A stretch of 37,041 nt of DNA. Source: a virus. The notes beneath the pieces were generated by a model, which saw only the letters and a list, made by a program, of their open reading frames with translations, searched no databases and was not told where the DNA came from. Where the stretch lies: IMG/VR virus record IMGVR_UViG_3300045988_137870. One strand, 5' to 3'. Positions 31,400 through 37,041 of the stretch are shown here, one piece after another. A program made the translations under genes and the position numbers. Every line of letters begins with the position of its first letter. Within the stretch, counting starts at the first letter, position 1.

Positions 31400-32470
31400 T
31401 CATTTGTACATGGTTTCTATATATTGGTCTGCTTCTTTGCGAATATCATCTGTGTAATGAATATAGGTAGCTGCTACGGTAGTGACATTATCCCCTAAAA
31501 CAGCCGCAACAAGATTAATATCCTTTGATTTTGATAAAAGCATGGTGGCAAAGGTATGCCGTAAGGTATGAACGGAAATTCCCTGTTTTAATTTACGCAG
31601 CTGCCTATTCATGAGGGCATGTGTACTTGGTGTTGTCGGGATAACGCGCCCGTCAATAGCTGCAGGGGTATTCAGTTTCCACGTATTTAATCTGGCTGCC
31701 AATTTCGTATTCATATGTATGGTTCGGTTTCCGTTTCGTGATTTTACGGCTTTAAATCCCCGTTTTTCGGGAGATATCCAGTTATACTGTTTATCTATGG
31801 TGATTGTTTGTCTGGTGAAATTGATACTGTTCCATGTCAATCCGGCTATTTCTCCATATCTCATGCCGGTATTCAGAGCAATGAAAGCGATCATGTAAAA
31901 AATGGATGTATCACTTAATGCGTCAAGCAGTTGCAATGATTCTTTTTCTGTCAGTGCTTTTACCCGGTGGGGTGTCTTATCTTTCACCTGTGTGACACTG
32001 TCTGCCGGATTTGCTGTAATAATTTTATACGGATTGATGGCATAGTTAAAGATGGCACGAATCTGGGCGAAACGATTCTTTCTTGTACCACTGCTGAATC
32101 GCGCCATATCTTGATAGACATTGATCACATCTCCGGCGGTGATCTCCCGTATTTGTTTATTGCTCAGGGTAGGAATGCTGCGGAGCATAAAGAAATAGTT
32201 CCTTTTTGTGCTATATTCTAAAGAGGATCCTTTATCCCGCAAGTATATATTCTGTGTGAAACTTTTAAAGGTAATATCCGCAAGTTCTGGATCTGCTCCG
32301 CAGGCGGCATCTTCTTTTGCAGCAGCTAACAATTTGTCTTGGTATTGTTTTGCTTCCCGCAAGGTTTTAAATCCCTGTTTGGTTTTCTGTTTCCATTTAC
32401 TATTCACTTTATAGGACAGGACAAGGCAGATACTGCCGTTTTTTTCTCGTGTGGAAAATGAATATTCCAT
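31400..32470 (-). CDS. int: Tyrosine recombinase / phage integrase
   Basis: The internal start MEYSFSTREKNG (ATG 32470) follows an AAGGAG SD. Catalytic motifs are ...GMRYGEI..., HTLRHTFAT and ...AATYIHY. The longer ORF to 32698 overlaps the abi gene. Confidence 0.85.
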   Translation of the reverse strand: MEYSFSTREKNGSICLVLSYKVNSKWKQKTKQGFKTLREAKQYQDKLLAAAKEDAACGADPELADITFKSFTQNIYLRDKGSSLEYSTKRNYFFMLRSIPTLSNKQIREITAGDVINVYQDMARFSSGTRKNRFAQIRAIFNYAINPYKIITANPADSVTQVKDKTPHRVKALTEKESLQLLDALSDTSIFYMIAFIALNTGMRYGEIAGLTWNSINFTRQTITIDKQYNWISPEKRGFKAVKSRNGNRTIHMNTKLAARLNTWKLNTPAAIDGRVIPTTPSTHALMNRQLRKLKQGISVHTLRHTFATMLLSKSKDINLVAAVLGDNVTTVAATYIHYTDDIRKEADQYIETMYK

Positions 32471-32618
32471 AATAAAAATCAGCTCCTTTTCTGAAACAGG
32501 GCTGATTGTGCTATAATATATGCGTAACCAGCCTGTGGTAGGGTTGTTACAATTGCCGGAAGGATACCCTTTATCGTTCCGGTTCCCGTCGTCATATGTC
32601 CGTATGGCGGCGGGATTT

Positions 32619-33605
32619 TTATTTAAATATTTCATATAAACGACGTAGAAATTTCTCATGCAGACCGGTAACTTCTCTGACAAACGAGGCCGCGTCATTT
32701 GGGATATTATTTCCTAATGTCCTCATGGATGTTTCTATCATTTCATAGTTAATGGAAAATACTTTGTTTTGTTTAAATAACAGAGAAACACATAGTAGAG
32801 CGGCCAAAGCATCATCTTGACCATACTTATACAAATTTGTTTTTTCGTCAATTGGAATAAATAGTTTTTCATGAATTAAAAGTTTTGGTATTCTTGTCGT
32901 GCGGGACGCCTTTTGATCAATCTTATGAATATAAAGTCGATTATTATGCGCGCATTTATTGCGGATATTCGTAAGGTAATAAAGGATAGAAGACAAAATT
33001 GTTGGTGTCAATTTAGAATTGATTGACTTAGCAATTGTCTTTTTTAAATCATCTTGCAAATTATCATAAAAATTGCTCATAGTGCCAAAATCCATAATAG
33101 TATTTAATCCCCATAGTGGTACTTGATTATATACGTCCATAAAATGGCATATAGCTGGATGTTTTTTTCTTTCGTTAAATTTATTAATATCTCTTTGAAG
33201 TTTGTTGATTAATTTAATAACAAATTTTTTCTTTGAAGGGTCTTTTGTAAATGAGTCAGGAGAAAGATATTTCCAATGAGAAGATCCATATCGCAGAGAG
33301 AAATGAAGCGATATTAAAGATTTCATTTGGGTTTCAACTGTAACAATCGAATAAAGCAAGTTGTTCCTTAAAATAGAATCAAAATGATACAGTTGAAGAA
33401 AATGTTTTAGCGTCGTACCATTTTTATAATAATCTTCACCTAATTCTAAACTTTTAGCTTTGTCAATAAATGGTTCTTTATATCCGTTTATAAGATTATA
33501 GTACCCATATTGTAACAGGATTGAATCGGATCCGGATTGAAGTGAAATGTTCCTTTTATTTAGAATTTCTAATTGCTCTGAAATACTTGTTGGTTTAAGC
33601 TCCAT
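32619..33605 (-). CDS. Abi_2 (AbiD/AbiF-family) HEPN-like abortive-infection protein
   Basis: The start MELKPTS is at 33605. Features are ...LLQYGYYNLINGYK... and an Rx4H motif in LTNIRNKCAHNNRLY, typical of the Abi_2/HEPN family. Confidence 0.75.
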   Translation of the reverse strand: MELKPTSISEQLEILNKRNISLQSGSDSILLQYGYYNLINGYKEPFIDKAKSLELGEDYYKNGTTLKHFLQLYHFDSILRNNLLYSIVTVETQMKSLISLHFSLRYGSSHWKYLSPDSFTKDPSKKKFVIKLINKLQRDINKFNERKKHPAICHFMDVYNQVPLWGLNTIMDFGTMSNFYDNLQDDLKKTIAKSINSKLTPTILSSILYYLTNIRNKCAHNNRLYIHKIDQKASRTTRIPKLLIHEKLFIPIDEKTNLYKYGQDDALAALLCVSLLFKQNKVFSINYEMIETSMRTLGNNIPNDAASFVREVTGLHEKFLRRLYEIFK

Positions 33606-33621
33606 AAATATTCTCCGATAA

Positions 33622-33691
33622 AAGAAAATAGCCCTGACACAATATGTATCAGGGCTATTTTCGGTCCGCTTTGTGCAATACGCCACGGTTC
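33622..33691 (-). ncRNA. Leader/small RNA copy B: conserved 30-nt 5' block plus 11-bp terminator hairpin
   Basis: On the - strand, GAACCGTGGCGTATTGCACAAAGCGGACCG is followed by GCCCTGATACA-TAT-TGTGTCAGGGC and TATTTTCTTTT. Confidence 0.5.
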
Positions 33692-33702
33692 AATCTATAG
33701 TC

Positions 33703-33731
33703 ATGATACAGAAATTTAGATTTTTTGTCAA
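33703..33731 (-). promoter_or_regulatory. Sigma-70-type promoter of leader B/abi (TTGACA-17 nt-TATCAT)
   Basis: The -35 element is at 33731-33726 and the -10 at 33708-33703, read on the - strand. The conserved RNA block starts 11 nt downstream. Confidence 0.6.
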
Positions 33732-33855
33732 TCAAAAACGTAACAAAATTATCCTAAACCGTAACAAAAATATCCTAAAAGATGTTGAAAGTGACCTAAA
33801 AGGTGTCAAAAATTTTCAGGGTTTATGCAAACGATTTAAAACAATACCAATGTAT

Positions 33856-34872
33856 TCAACTTTTAATTACTTTTGACATATCTTTGACTATTTCAATTAT
33901 TTGTGTTGGCTCATCATTTGATCCATCTTCTTTTAAATAACCACTCTGGGGATTCGAAAAAATCGCTTTTGTCGTTTGCAACAAAACTGCATTGCGAATT
34001 TCCTCGTTACTAGTGGCCTTTACAAAAGTTTCAAAAGTACTTAGTGCATTTTGCTTATTTTTATTTATTATATAGTTATGTGATTGTGCTCGATAATTTT
34101 TGCCGCATGTTACTAGAATATAGAAAAGTACAATCAAACCGGTAAATCGTGGTAATATAGCTTGAGCAAATCGATATAAATATGGTTCCTCAAGTATAAT
34201 AGGACACCGCCAAAATGTTATAAAGGAATATGCCACAATGGCAACACTTACGCCGACAATCCATTTAAACCATATAGATTTACCTTTTTCAAACATATTC
34301 GCAGCTTCCTGGAAATTTACTGTGTGATTGGTTACACCTACGGAATTAGCCGCCTTCTGCACGGCCTCTGTTATTTCTCGTATATTTTCCTGTGCTGCTT
34401 CTCTTTCTTTTCTTGCCTGTTCTTGTTCCTGTTTAAAATTATCTAACGCCTCTTTGGCTTGTCGTTGTAAAGCTTCATAGTCAGTCCCCGCTTTAGTACA
34501 ATAGGCAACAATGGGAGAGATGGTTTTAAACCAAGAGTTATTATAGTTATTTGTGATGCTATCTATAAGACTCTGACGTACACTAGGCCCCTGCATAGAT
34601 GAGAAGCTCTTGATTTGTTCAATGGAATTAATAAAAGTATCCATTTCATTGTTCAAATCTCGTATTATTGACTCGGGAACTCTCATTATATCAATATCAG
34701 CTAAGCCTTTGAACAGATTGATCGCTGTTTCGAAATCGGTTTCTGCATCAGCGAAATTTAATTCAGATCCTAATTCATCACGGCGAATTAAATCTTTAGC
34801 GTTAAATTTTTTTATTGTGGAAAGATTTGTATCAAACTGAGTTCGTACTTCATCGGATAGTTTTATCGGCAT
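33856..34872 (-). CDS. Hypothetical protein: ~200-aa helical/coiled-coil cytoplasmic domain, two TM helices, helical C-terminal domain
   Basis: It has an AAGGAGGA SD. The TM segments are IWFKWIVGVSVAIVAYSFITFW and FTGLIVLFYILVTCG. It lies downstream of the repressor operon. Confidence 0.7.
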   Translation of the reverse strand: MPIKLSDEVRTQFDTNLSTIKKFNAKDLIRRDELGSELNFADAETDFETAINLFKGLADIDIMRVPESIIRDLNNEMDTFINSIEQIKSFSSMQGPSVRQSLIDSITNNYNNSWFKTISPIVAYCTKAGTDYEALQRQAKEALDNFKQEQEQARKEREAAQENIREITEAVQKAANSVGVTNHTVNFQEAANMFEKGKSIWFKWIVGVSVAIVAYSFITFWRCPIILEEPYLYRFAQAILPRFTGLIVLFYILVTCGKNYRAQSHNYIINKNKQNALSTFETFVKATSNEEIRNAVLLQTTKAIFSNPQSGYLKEDGSNDEPTQIIEIVKDMSKVIKS

Positions 34873-34938
34873 AATTGAGATCCTCCTTTTGTCTGCTATT
34901 TTCCCCTATCAATGATTTTCTTGAAAACAAATGTCATA

Positions 34939-35721
34939 TTAAAATATTTGATTCCCATCAAAATACAGACGAGTCATTTTGCCACCGTTTTTGAAATCGT
35001 ATTCTGCTTCGAAAGTACTACGAATCATAGCACCAAAGCTATTTTGTGCATCGACATACCCAGCTATATTACCGATGCCATGCATTTTCCTGAATTTATA
35101 ATCATTATAGCCTGGAAATTTTGCAGTAGAAGGAGCTTTAAGTAATTTTGAGACAGCTTTTTCAGTAACTCTTTGCATGTGAGTTTCTTCTTCAACTGTT
35201 AAGCTATTATCGGGAAGAGTTTCAAGAAATTGCCCGTCCTTATATAAATTTATAGTGTTATATCTTATTGATTCTACTTTATTATCAGGAGTCATATAAA
35301 GAATAACGTTTCCAAAGCCATTCCCTTTTAGTCTATATCCTTTGATATCTGGAGTGTCCCCTAAGTTTTCATCGTATGTAATATTTTCAACTTTATTAAT
35401 CTTTACGGTTTCAAATGCGCTCTCTACAGCAGCTAATTCTTCCTGAGTCTTTAAACCTAACGATTTAACAAAAATATTTTCGGAAAAAGCTTTTTCTTTA
35501 TTCTTATTTTCTGCTTCTATTCGTTGTGCTTCTTTAATTTCTGGCGGAAGAAGAACATTGTATAGATTCATGCTGACAATAAAAATCAGTAACCAAATTA
35601 TGACGATTTTCCAACGTTTCATGTTTGGGGCTTTACCGAAAGTTCCCCATTTTGGTTTTATTAATCCAACAATTAACATGATAAATGCGAACATCATAAC
35701 GGCGGAAAATAACTGATACAT
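34939..35721 (-). CDS. Hypothetical membrane protein: two N-terminal TM helices plus extracytoplasmic domain
   Basis: The start MYQLFSAV (ATG 35721) follows a GAGGGG SD, 28 nt after the repressor stop. The C-terminal segment ...PSTAKFPG...GYVDAQNSFGAMIRSTF... is common in small surface proteins. Confidence 0.65.
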   Translation of the reverse strand: MYQLFSAVMMFAFIMLIVGLIKPKWGTFGKAPNMKRWKIVIIWLLIFIVSMNLYNVLLPPEIKEAQRIEAENKNKEKAFSENIFVKSLGLKTQEELAAVESAFETVKINKVENITYDENLGDTPDIKGYRLKGNGFGNVILYMTPDNKVESIRYNTINLYKDGQFLETLPDNSLTVEEETHMQRVTEKAVSKLLKAPSTAKFPGYNDYKFRKMHGIGNIAGYVDAQNSFGAMIRSTFEAEYDFKNGGKMTRLYFDGNQIF

Positions 35722-35749
35722 CTGCTTTACCCCTCTCTCTTGATAAAAA

Positions 35750-36424
35750 TTACAATTTCCCTCTGATTTCAACGACTTTCCCAAGAATAGTCACCGGAAG
35801 TTCCTTACATTCTTTTTTATTGTATGTTCTTGGTGTGTAAACGGACGGATTCCAGCCTATTAAGGTCAGTCCGGCATCTGATTTACTGATCTGCTTTACT
35901 GTGGCGTCGTTTCCGTTAACTAAGACAACAGCTATGTCGCCGCTGTCCACATCTGGCTGACGCCGAACAATGACCACATCTCCGTCCATCATGCGGGGTT
36001 CCATGGATTTACCCGCTATTTTTAGCGCAAAGTATTCGCCTGTCTTGGCCATGCTTTGCGGGATTTCTTCCCAATCTTCAATATCCGTGATAGCCTCGAT
36101 AGGAATGCCTGCAGCCACTTTACCGAGAACGGGAATGCGGATCCCTTTAGCGGGAGAAGATGGTTTGTCTGTCTTATCAGGTAGAAGAGTTACTAATTGA
36201 TTACCATCTAATTCTTTTAAAAATACATCCAAATCTAAACCGACGGCTTGTGCAATTTTGTCAAATGCTTGAATCGTTGGGGAAATAGGCTTACCTGTTG
36301 ACGGGTTAATTCCTTTTTCCAATTGACCTATATACGCTTTACTAAATCCACACATATCGGCCATTTCCTGCATGGAAAGCGAGTGCTTATCACGATAATT
36401 TTTAATCCATTCGCCTAATGTCAT
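35750..36424 (-). CDS. CI-like repressor: XRE-family HTH plus S24 (LexA-like) autopeptidase domain
   Basis: The HTH is LSMQEMADMCGFSKAYIGQLEKG. The S24 motifs are AGKSMEP...DGDVVIV...VKQI. The start at 36424 follows an AAGGGGTGA SD. Confidence 0.85.
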   Translation of the reverse strand: MTLGEWIKNYRDKHSLSMQEMADMCGFSKAYIGQLEKGINPSTGKPISPTIQAFDKIAQAVGLDLDVFLKELDGNQLVTLLPDKTDKPSSPAKGIRIPVLGKVAAGIPIEAITDIEDWEEIPQSMAKTGEYFALKIAGKSMEPRMMDGDVVIVRRQPDVDSGDIAVVLVNGNDATVKQISKSDAGLTLIGWNPSVYTPRTYNKKECKELPVTILGKVVEIRGKL

Positions 36425-36457
36425 ATTTATCACCCCTTTATCCATATCGTCAAATAT

Positions 36458-36521
36458 ATTTTACATTAGTGAAAAAATCTTGTCAAACATACTTGACAAG
36501 AAACGAAATGAACAGTATACT
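36458..36521. promoter_or_regulatory. Divergent back-to-back promoters with palindromic operator CTTGTCAA-N6-TTGACAAG (36479-36500)
   Basis: The + strand has TTGACA (36493-98), a 17-nt spacer and TATACT (36516-21). The - strand has TTGACA (36486-81), a 17-nt spacer and TAAAAT (36463-58). Confidence 0.7.
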
Positions 36522-36544
36522 AGACAACAAAAGGAGGTGTAGTA

Positions 36545-36739
36545 ATGAGATATAGATTAAAGGAGCTAAGAGAGCAGCGAAAAATGTCACAAGAAGAATT
36601 AAGTGAAAAAGCAGGAGTATCGCGTCAGATTATTTCTACCCTTGAACAAGAAACGAGTGAAGTAAATACTACGACGGCTACGTTGCAAAAGCTTTCTGTT
36701 GCATTGAATTGCCCTCTTAGTGAAATTTTTTTGCCCTAA
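36545..36739 (+). CDS. Cro-like XRE-family HTH regulator
   Basis: It has an AAGGAGG SD and the HTH MSQEELSEKAGVSRQIISTLEQ. It is divergent from the repressor. Confidence 0.8.
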   Translation: MRYRLKELREQRKMSQEELSEKAGVSRQIISTLEQETSEVNTTTATLQKLSVALNCPLSEIFLP

Positions 36740-36766
36740 TCGTCTAGTATATAAGACGATTAGGGC
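36733..36766. promoter_or_regulatory. Perfect 13-bp inverted repeat GCCCTAATCGTCT-N8-AGACGATTAGGGC overlapping the cro stop
   Basis: It was read directly. There is no clear T-tract on either side. It may be a weak terminator or a distal operator. Confidence 0.45.
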
Positions 36767-36818
36767 TTATCAGAGTAGCTCATAAAACAAGAAAGGAGTG
36801 AGGGAAATAAAAGAGAAA

Positions 36819-36944
36819 ATGGAAGTCCACATAGAGGTGTTTGTCAATACATATGACGATAGCAAAGACATTGTGAAGCTAGCGTCTGACATACAAAAAG
36901 AGCACAGCTGTCACTGCACTCTTTTTGTAAAACAATCCCATTGA
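36819..36944 (+). CDS. Possible 41-aa ORF (MEVHIEVFVNTYDDSKDIVKLASDIQKEHSCHCTLFVKQSH)
   Basis: It fills the gap between cro and the excisionase-like gene. The SD is weak or distant. Confidence 0.25.
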   Translation: MEVHIEVFVNTYDDSKDIVKLASDIQKEHSCHCTLFVKQSH

Positions 36945-36986
36945 ACAACCTTACTGGAACGAAACAAATTCAATGTTTTTGCCCCA

Positions 36987-37041
36987 TACATGAAGCATCC
37001 GTTCACCAACGAAGCAGAAAGAGATTTACAACAACCTACCA
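36987..37041. repeat. 55-bp terminal direct repeat, copy 2 (circular-assembly overlap)
   Basis: Exact match to bases 1-55. ORF 4-384 continues seamlessly across the junction. Confidence 0.95.

Follow-up and report, generated by a model that had tools for sequence, protein, structure and literature searches.

The 37,041-nt viral sequence IMGVR_UViG_3300045988_137870 of IMG/VR, referred to at its full length as the window, carries two genes for membrane proteins, ORF260 and ORF338, directly behind its CI-type repressor gene. ORF338 is best read as a single-protein, membrane-acting abortive-infection or exclusion factor, and its family looks like a self-contained defence-island gene. A preliminary description made from the DNA letters had proposed the two genes as a candidate sensor plus membrane-effector defence pair. 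The parts of that proposal which hold are the rex-like position and a plausible defence role for ORF338, given relatives in BREX operons, type I restriction–modification (R-M) operons and Abi-rich arrays; the pairing does not hold. ORF260 and ORF338 are instead read as unrelated, independently exchangeable cassettes (morons) of the slot between CI and the integrase gene, with a neighbouring Abi_2/AbiD gene as a third cassette; this explanation, taken together with a membrane-acting defence role of ORF338 and a separate envelope role of ORF260, has about an even chance. The genes in question are:

35750..36445, minus strand: CI-type repressor (HTH_3 PF01381, 5.9e-9; Peptidase_S24 PF00717, 4.2e-27; phrog_4, transcriptional repressor, 2.4e-35)
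34939..35721, minus strand: ORF260, from ATG 35721 to the stop at 34939, 260 amino acids (aa)
34873..34938, minus strand: ORF260–ORF338 spacer of 66 nt, with the Shine–Dalgarno sequence AAGGAGGA and no promoter-like or terminator-like site
33856..34872, minus strand: ORF338, from ATG 34872 to the stop at 33856, 338 aa

ORF260 starts 28 nt past the CI stop, with the Shine–Dalgarno sequence GAGAGAGGGG ahead of its start, and the ORF338 start is preceded by AAGGAGGA at a spacing of 8 nt. Layout, both spacings, ribosome-binding sites and protein lengths are all as first described. Both are real genes because they have relatives in the databases (206 for ORF260 and 59 for ORF338 at E ≤ 1e-3) and because the ratio of nonsynonymous to synonymous substitution rates (dN/dS) among close ORF338 alleles is 0.1–0.2, which indicates purifying selection.

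Co-occurrence of the two families was followed by BLAST and then by profile hidden Markov models (HMMs) from both family alignments, over every fetched locus. An ORF260-family gene is present in 6 of 107 ORF338-family loci (the window, L005-7, L092, and L094), all six being 88–91% ORF338 alleles in the same prophage lineage. In the reverse direction, an ORF338-family gene is present in 2 of 80 viral ORF260-family loci—L115 and L116, a second recovery of the contigs L092 and L094. The HMMs found no partner gene in the other 101 ORF338-family loci and none in the other 78 viral ORF260-family loci. Such a survey had been named beforehand as the test that could overturn a sensor plus effector module, and outside this one lineage the genes do not travel together. 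The slot itself is variable. In the sister prophages L093 (1128–2543) and L091 (6510–7925), its occupant is a protein of 471 aa that combines a transmembrane (TM) helix at the N terminus with a DUF4041 domain and a T5orf172/MUG113 (GIY-YIG-like) domain, beside the same CI and an ORF338 that is 91–97% identical. The 65% ORF338 clade holds a 211-aa Zn-ribbon protein in this slot, and the 61% clade a 73-aa HExxH ImmA-like protein, 4 nt upstream. The swap beside a 91–97% identical ORF338 marks the region behind CI as a cassette-exchange hotspot.

ORF338 features a helical cytoplasmic domain, a TM hairpin, and a helical C terminus, and the AlphaFold2 (AF2) model and TM prediction agree with the preliminary description on all three. 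The model is all-helical, with a pLDDT of 80.6: an N-terminal helical bundle (residues 7–129); a continuous helix of about 90 residues (132–222), whose final ~20 residues are TM1; helix 231–286, which comprises TM2 and a conserved cytoplasmic helix; and a C terminus of helix 290–305, a disordered acidic stretch, and a terminal amphipathic helix. The TM segments lie at residues ~200–223 and 238–256 and are joined by a short, net-acidic outer loop of 8–13 residues. Because of this acidic loop and a K/R-rich post-TM stretch, both termini are predicted to be cytoplasmic. The position of the hairpin is retained in 27 ORF338 relatives with identities down to 24%. The best conserved part is the post-TM cytoplasmic module (258–312), with a majority-residue fraction of 0.73 and the motif NYRAxxHNYxxNKxxQNALSTFETF; the fraction is 0.42 in the N-domain (1–130), which is variable among relatives, and 0.35–0.47 in the TM helices. 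Invariant residues are G179, V180, F187, W201, Y260, H265, N270, L277, T279, L297, and F305. Local divergence of close alleles reflects segmental recombination (mosaicism), with dS near 1; diversifying selection in the N-domain was considered and rejected, dN/dS being 0.1–0.2 everywhere. Damaged alleles occur in metagenomes: an in-frame stop at codon 114 in L091 (8001–9017); a deletion that fuses an upstream Zn-ribbon gene to the conserved C terminus of the family (P0054); a fusion of the family N terminus to a DUF1828 protein (P0049); an internal deletion of the coiled coil (P0007); and a truncation ahead of TM1 (P0015). These inactivated and chimeric copies fit a costly or toxic gene.

The ORF338 family is large, comprising at least 4,684 representatives at E ≤ 1e-3 (50% identity clusters) and 2,034 at E ≤ 1e-30, nearly all of them 330–345 aa long. 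It occurs in 77 species-representative genomes across many phyla, with members in Negativicutes, Streptococcus, Bacteroidota, Acidobacteriota, Nitrospirota, Alphaproteobacteria, and Vibrio. In line with the unknown family first proposed, neither ORF338 nor ORF260 is claimed by a Pfam, NCBIfam, or PADLOC model: ORF338 returned coiled-coil or TM noise only from these collections and from PHROG, and profile scans of 27 diverse relatives gave nothing consistent. Every source name among the relatives is "hypothetical protein". By tblastn, ORF338 has no match in the INPHARED phages and one Vibrio match, annotated "hypothetical", in the PLSDB plasmids. A profile search against PDB sequences gave coiled-coil matches only, and Foldseek with the AF2 model found nothing in the PDB at E ≤ 0.001 (long-helix noise) and in BFVD only a member of its own family. 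A literature search found the comparators treated below and no description of the ORF260 or the ORF338 family.

ORF338 homologues occupy the same slot, the interval between repressor and integrase, in at least four other prophage backbones, with gaps of 4–43 nt. In L005, L009, L001, L013, L098, and L099 the homologue lies downstream of the repressor on the same strand and, except in L099, where the integrase was not identified, also ahead of the integrase. These loci span different CI, helix-turn-helix (HTH), tyrosine-integrase, and serine-recombinase backbones, and no same-strand terminator was found inside their operons. The gene orders, with protein lengths in aa, are:

L005: CI, 260, 338, Abi_2, integrase
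L009 and L095: CI, Zn-ribbon 211, 337, serine recombinase
L014: HTH, ..., Zn-ribbon 211, 337, serine recombinase
L098: HTH, ..., Zn-ribbon 222, 337, Abi_2, integrase
L001: HTH-ImmA-like, 4 nt, 337, a 184-aa gene, serine recombinase
L013: CI, 124, HSDR_N, ion channel, 341, NYN, integrase
L099: CI-like, 14 nt, 344

The prophage neighbours of ORF338 homologues thus include Abi_2, NYN, and HSDR_N, and also T5orf172. A double Zn-ribbon protein of 211–222 aa with a glycine-rich hydrophobic segment is encoded directly upstream of the 65–67% ORF338 clade (L009, L014, L095–L098); this arrangement spans at least three different repressor/recombinase backbones and could be simple linkage or a clade-specific partnership.

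Further homologues are embedded in defence operons. In type 1 BREX, the homologue stands between brxC and the pglX-type methylase gene in four species (L017, L036, L060, and L071). In two type I R-M operons (L195 and L196), it takes the place of X in the order hsdM-...-X-hsdS-hsdR. There the homologue is preceded by a protein of 358/359 aa (L195 5925–7001, L196 5910–6989) with an N-terminal LFGAGAS motif and no Pfam match, which may be SIR2-like; its gene overlaps the start codon of the homologue in L195, ends 11 nt upstream in L196, and was found beside no other family member. As raw counts without a background rate, type I methyltransferases make up 6 of the 146 immediate ORF338-family neighbours, and four S subunits lie at ±2 genes. 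On the Vibrio tubiashii plasmid pFP31 (L114; NZ_CP117031.1, 184–203 kb), the homologue is part of a long co-directional array of small genes that includes Hhe, a HEPN-associated protein, a 5'-nucleotidase, a GIY-YIG nuclease, and AbiH, and that looks like an integron-like or cassette-type defence array. All-against-all clustering of neighbours over 106 loci gave no conserved ORF338 partner beyond lineage-specific ones: nrdB in sphingomonads; the Zn-ribbon protein in the 65% clade; and the 358-aa GAGAS-motif protein in the two type I R-M loci. Placement in defence islands—BREX in four species, type I R-M, the Vibrio array, and prophage Abi genes—thus recurs without a fixed partner, alongside non-defence contexts and as examples without a matched background.

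ORF260 has TM segments at residues 3–21 and 39–57 (Kyte–Doolittle windows). The loop between them holds five K/R and no acidic residues, so that the C-terminal 200 aa are predicted to face outwards. The AF2 model, with a pLDDT of 93.5, features two TM helices, a helical linker, and two modules of a helix plus a four- or five-stranded sheet. ORF260 is therefore predicted to be an N-out/C-out anchored protein with two small α+β modules on the periplasmic side. This agrees with the two N-terminal TM helices and the extracytoplasmic domain proposed at the outset, and it contradicts a RexA-type cytoplasmic sensor. A conserved domain of promiscuous habit makes up the last ~75 residues (LKAPSTAKF...VDAQNSFGAMIRS.F); it is widespread, Patescibacteria included, and carried on interchangeable anchors: two TM helices; one TM helix; a Zn-ribbon plus TM helix; or a lipoprotein. 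ORF260 matches phrog_26910 (8.7e-36), of unknown function. A profile search against PDB sequences returned nothing, and Foldseek against the PDB no match at E ≤ 0.001, with NTF2-like similarity that is insignificant. The family is present in 287 viral loci, and in 39 of the 79 examined a repressor is recognisable upstream or an integrase lies within 5 kb. A relative with 79% identity (L108, 5001–5786) is chromosomal and stands in the housekeeping context argS, pyrG, gene, RNase J, DUF2232, GdpP, which suggests that the prophage ORF260 was captured from, or is exchanging with, a host gene. Another, with 37% identity, has a plain chromosomal context near surE and bioY, and a third, with 40% identity, lies in a Veillonella prophage behind HTH-ImmA and ahead of RhuM-integrase. 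ORF260 is probably an independent cassette that would act separately at the envelope, in superinfection exclusion or receptor masking.

The lysogeny module forms the right end of the window, in the order cro-like gene, CI, ORF260, ORF338, Abi_2/AbiD, tyrosine integrase. Its other features are:

36545..36739, plus strand: Cro-like HTH gene (HTH_3, 3.3e-15), divergent from CI
36493..36521, plus strand: cro promoter, 11/12 consensus matches, back-to-back with the PRM-like promoter
36458..36486, minus strand: PRM-like promoter of the CI operon, TTGACA-17-TAAAAT, 11/12 consensus matches
33703..33731, minus strand: promoter-like site in the ORF338–Abi_2 interval, TTGACA-17-TATCAT, 11/12
33624..33662, minus strand: strong hairpin (18 bp) with T-run, the first convincing minus-strand terminator, ~195 nt past the ORF338 stop
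32619..33605, minus strand: Abi_2/AbiD-family abortive-infection gene (PF07751, 7.6e-41; PADLOC AbiD, 9.8e-46; phrog_2158, 2.5e-56)
31400..32470, minus strand: tyrosine integrase (PF00589, 9.3e-17), which marks the end of the lysogeny module

A consensus scan found no promoter-like site (≥9/12) in the CI–ORF260 or the ORF260–ORF338 gap, and the sole minus-strand terminator-like site from CI to the ORF338 stop is a weak 5-bp stem in the TM-coding part of ORF338. This bears out the earlier remark that no convincing promoter or terminator separates the three genes, and with it the rexAB-like position: both genes belong to the immunity operon and share the CI strand, tightly spaced and with no predicted terminator between them. 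A single transcript most likely covers CI, ORF260, and ORF338, from the PRM-like promoter to its likely end at the hairpin at 33662–33624, and both proteins would then be made in the lysogen. The CI start is probably ATG 36424, behind GGGGTG, giving 224 aa, the length called in the sister locus L005; ATG 36445 of the mechanical CI open reading frame lies just 13 nt past the −10 hexamer. The likely integrase start is M77 of a 432-aa open reading frame, giving 356 aa, the length of the L093 orthologue.

The Abi_2/AbiD gene next door is a defence cassette in its own right. Its PF07751 match reaches 140.9 bits, the Pfam gathering cut-off being 25.6, and the gene starts at ATG 33605 behind GGAGAA, the mechanical open reading frame beginning at GTG 33686. 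The hairpin at 33662–33624 lies ~40 nt downstream of the Abi_2 promoter-like site, within the 5' leader of the Abi_2 gene. It either terminates the CI operon or serves the Abi_2 gene as an attenuator or a leader resembling a small RNA. The abiF motif of Rfam, which is associated with such genes, was ruled out by an Rfam scan, in which no family matched and a sub-threshold Thr_leader-like score was driven by the hairpin. GC content is 0.30–0.37 across 33–36 kb versus ~0.40–0.49 over most of the phage, which fits acquired cassettes. By size and order of the open reading frames, the plus strand of 1–31 kb looks like the replication, packaging, head, tail, and lysis genes of a temperate tailed phage. 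No tRNA gene was found in the window, and megablast of 31400–37041 against the INPHARED phages gave no match.

The closest parallels in gene arrangement are lambda RexA/RexB and mycobacteriophage Sbash gp30/gp31. Each pair combines a cytoplasmic protein that has a DUF4747 domain (RexA, gp30) with a membrane partner of four TM helices (RexB, gp31), and the model for these systems is an infection-triggered membrane protein that leads to loss of membrane potential (PMC6426596). Repressor-adjacent, co-oriented genes, presumed expression in the lysogen, and the proposed outcome are alike. Unlike these systems, ORF338 has two TM helices rather than four and a large cytoplasmic domain of its own, ORF260 is an outward-facing membrane protein rather than a cytoplasmic one, and the joint inheritance of the known pairs is lacking. 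Neither protein has a DUF4747 match in Pfam (E ≤ 0.1), and neither has a RexB-like match in Pfam or PADLOC.

Among single-gene systems, the lactococcal AbiZ of Durmaz and Klaenhammer (2007) is reportedly a membrane Abi protein of ~330 aa with two predicted TM helices. ORF338 resembles it as a single polypeptide of that size and topology with a proposed membrane action during infection, but homology is not detectable: with the AbiZ profile of PADLOC, ORF338 gives no match and a single one of 27 relatives gives E = 0.0077. SLATT-domain proteins are reported to be two-TM effectors of CBASS-, reverse transcriptase (RT)-, and SLOG-associated systems (Burroughs et al., 2015). They share with ORF338 a two-TM hairpin between conserved cytoplasmic helices and a presumed membrane-perturbing logic. 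They differ in that ORF338 has no Pfam SLATT match at E ≤ 0.1 and a PADLOC RTasSLATT value of 0.041, SLATT_5 matches 1 of 27 relatives at 0.0064, below cut-off, and Foldseek against SLATT-annotated viral proteins gives E above 1. No SMODS, SLOG, or RT partner is among the top 25 neighbour families of ORF338 at ±1 or ±2 genes. Residues 46–223 of ORF338 align weakly with LeoBC 341–478 (4.9e-5, 20.6 bits), without a dynamin GTPase domain in Pfam. PdpSau mediates infection-dependent membrane depolarisation and features one N-terminal TM helix, an OB-fold-like domain, and a location in the lysis module (PMC10127798). It is, like AbiP, a prophage accessory gene for a membrane-anchored protein with a cytoplasmic domain; ORF338 differs from PdpSau by its C-proximal TM hairpin, all-helical cytoplasmic part, and immunity-operon position. 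For ORF260, the nearest counterparts are Ltp and Sie2009, superinfection-exclusion membrane proteins or lipoproteins of temperate phages. Alike is a small, anchored, outward-facing protein encoded beside the repressor; unlike are the missing Pfam Lipoprotein_Ltp match, the two-TM anchor, the α+β fold of two helix-plus-sheet modules, and the close chromosomal relatives of ORF260.

As a mechanism for ORF338, the variable cytoplasmic N-domain would sense a phage-derived cue and the long helix would pass the change to the membrane, where the conserved juxtamembrane and TM module may oligomerise and breach or depolarise the inner membrane; the damage would abort the infection. Such a logic would amount to RexA and RexB fused in one chain, without homology to either, and ORF260 would have a task of its own on the outer side of the membrane, either exclusion or a modification of the envelope. 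That the ORF338 family defends at all is on balance to be expected, if only just. An undescribed, phylum-spanning single-gene anti-phage system, a one-chain Rex used in prophage immunity as well as in BREX and type I R-M operons, falls somewhat short of an even chance, and the membrane-abortive mechanism in particular is a tentative proposal, held with less confidence still. Several points weigh against these readings. ORF338 and ORF260 lack homology to any characterised protein, and their defence function is what we infer from sequence and context; co-transcription is read from consensus scans. Most of the 146 immediate ORF338-family neighbours are not known defence genes. In sphingomonads the family gene lies 0–10 nt downstream of nrdB (L058, L063, and L069; also L053, L059, and L089), with a gene of ~660–700 aa further upstream, presumably nrdA. 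Distant IMG/VR members of ~25% identity (L105–L107 and L100) lie between terL and the portal gene, that is, in the packaging and not the lysogeny module; the portal is confirmed by Pfam in L105 and presumed in L100. The dN/dS of the N-domain gives no sign of an arms race, and the weak conservation of the TM helices fits an anchor equally well as a pore. For ORF260, the chromosomal relative with 79% identity may point to a cellular function unrelated to phages.

Four other explanations can be set against independent cassettes with a defensive ORF338. An obligate pair of a sensor and a membrane effector, as in RexAB or Sbash gp30/31, would account for two genes that adjoin on one strand behind CI, across a 66-nt gap free of predicted signals, and that travel together in five other sampled loci of the prophage lineage. 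It is highly improbable, since the co-occurrence stays within that lineage, unrelated genes take the ORF260 slot beside nearly unchanged ORF338 alleles, ORF260 relatives in chromosomes and other prophages have no ORF338 relative with them, and a DUF4747 or RexB-like match is lacking; moreover, with the ORF260 fold extracytoplasmic and nearly nothing of ORF338 outside, contact would be limited to the TM helices. ORF338 could also be a superinfection-exclusion protein that keeps phage DNA from entering, or halts an early step at the inner membrane, while the cell survives. Membrane proteins with such an entry-blocking action have precedents in HK97 gp15, P22 SieA, and T4 Imm, and a stand-alone inner-membrane protein placed in an immunity operon would suit such a role. 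With an outer loop of ~8–13 residues, little of the protein could encounter a phage from outside; the large N-domain on the cytoplasmic side suggests that sensing takes place within the cell, and the many relatives in non-prophage chromosomal BREX and R-M operons across phyla fit general intracellular defence better than lineage-specific exclusion, which makes exclusion of this sort quite unlikely.

Less remote, and still unlikely, is a function of the ORF338 family outside defence, for example in membrane remodelling or stress, comparable to a dynamin stalk and paddle that lacks the GTPase, or in nucleotide metabolism, with mobile elements carrying it as a fitness gene. In its favour are the stable slot that members take right behind nrdB in several sphingomonads and the weak matches of 7 of 27 members to the PADLOC model for dynamin-like LeoBC (best 9.3e-6, in the helical and TM1 region), together with a majority of neighbours that are not defence genes and purifying selection only. 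On the other side, no GTPase or other enzymatic domain is present and the LeoBC and JetC matches lie in the coiled coil and are probably compositional; the repeated embedding in BREX, type I R-M, and prophage immunity operons of unrelated phyla is not easily reconciled with a housekeeping role; the distribution is also patchy, and pseudogenised and chimeric copies exist. ORF260, for its part, might be a host-derived envelope protein that the prophage keeps for a lysogenic-conversion role unrelated to phages, such as envelope maintenance or adhesion. The 79% copy between pyrG and the RNase J gene, the 37% copy near surE/bioY, and a C-terminal domain that is widespread on many kinds of anchor, Patescibacteria included, lend this some weight; against it stand the 287 viral loci with 39 of 79 adjoining a repressor or integrase, and the relative in the same post-repressor slot of the Veillonella prophage, a position typical of exclusion genes. 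It is somewhat unlikely. Independent cassettes, with ORF338 as a membrane-acting defence factor, thus remain the best reading.

Prophage immunity regions are rich in defence genes, and most of their morons are unnamed. The slot behind CI is a cassette exchange site, occupied by ORF260, T5orf172, Zn-ribbon, or ImmA genes, then by ORF338, and then by Abi_2, NYN, or nothing; adjacency behind CI is therefore not evidence of a functional pair. The ORF338 family is abundant, unnamed, architecturally distinctive, and found with defence systems, and as such is one of many candidates of this kind. If it defends, it would add to the known defence systems a widespread membrane effector made of one protein, and would offer a simple system for the transfer of a cytoplasmic signal to a TM hairpin.

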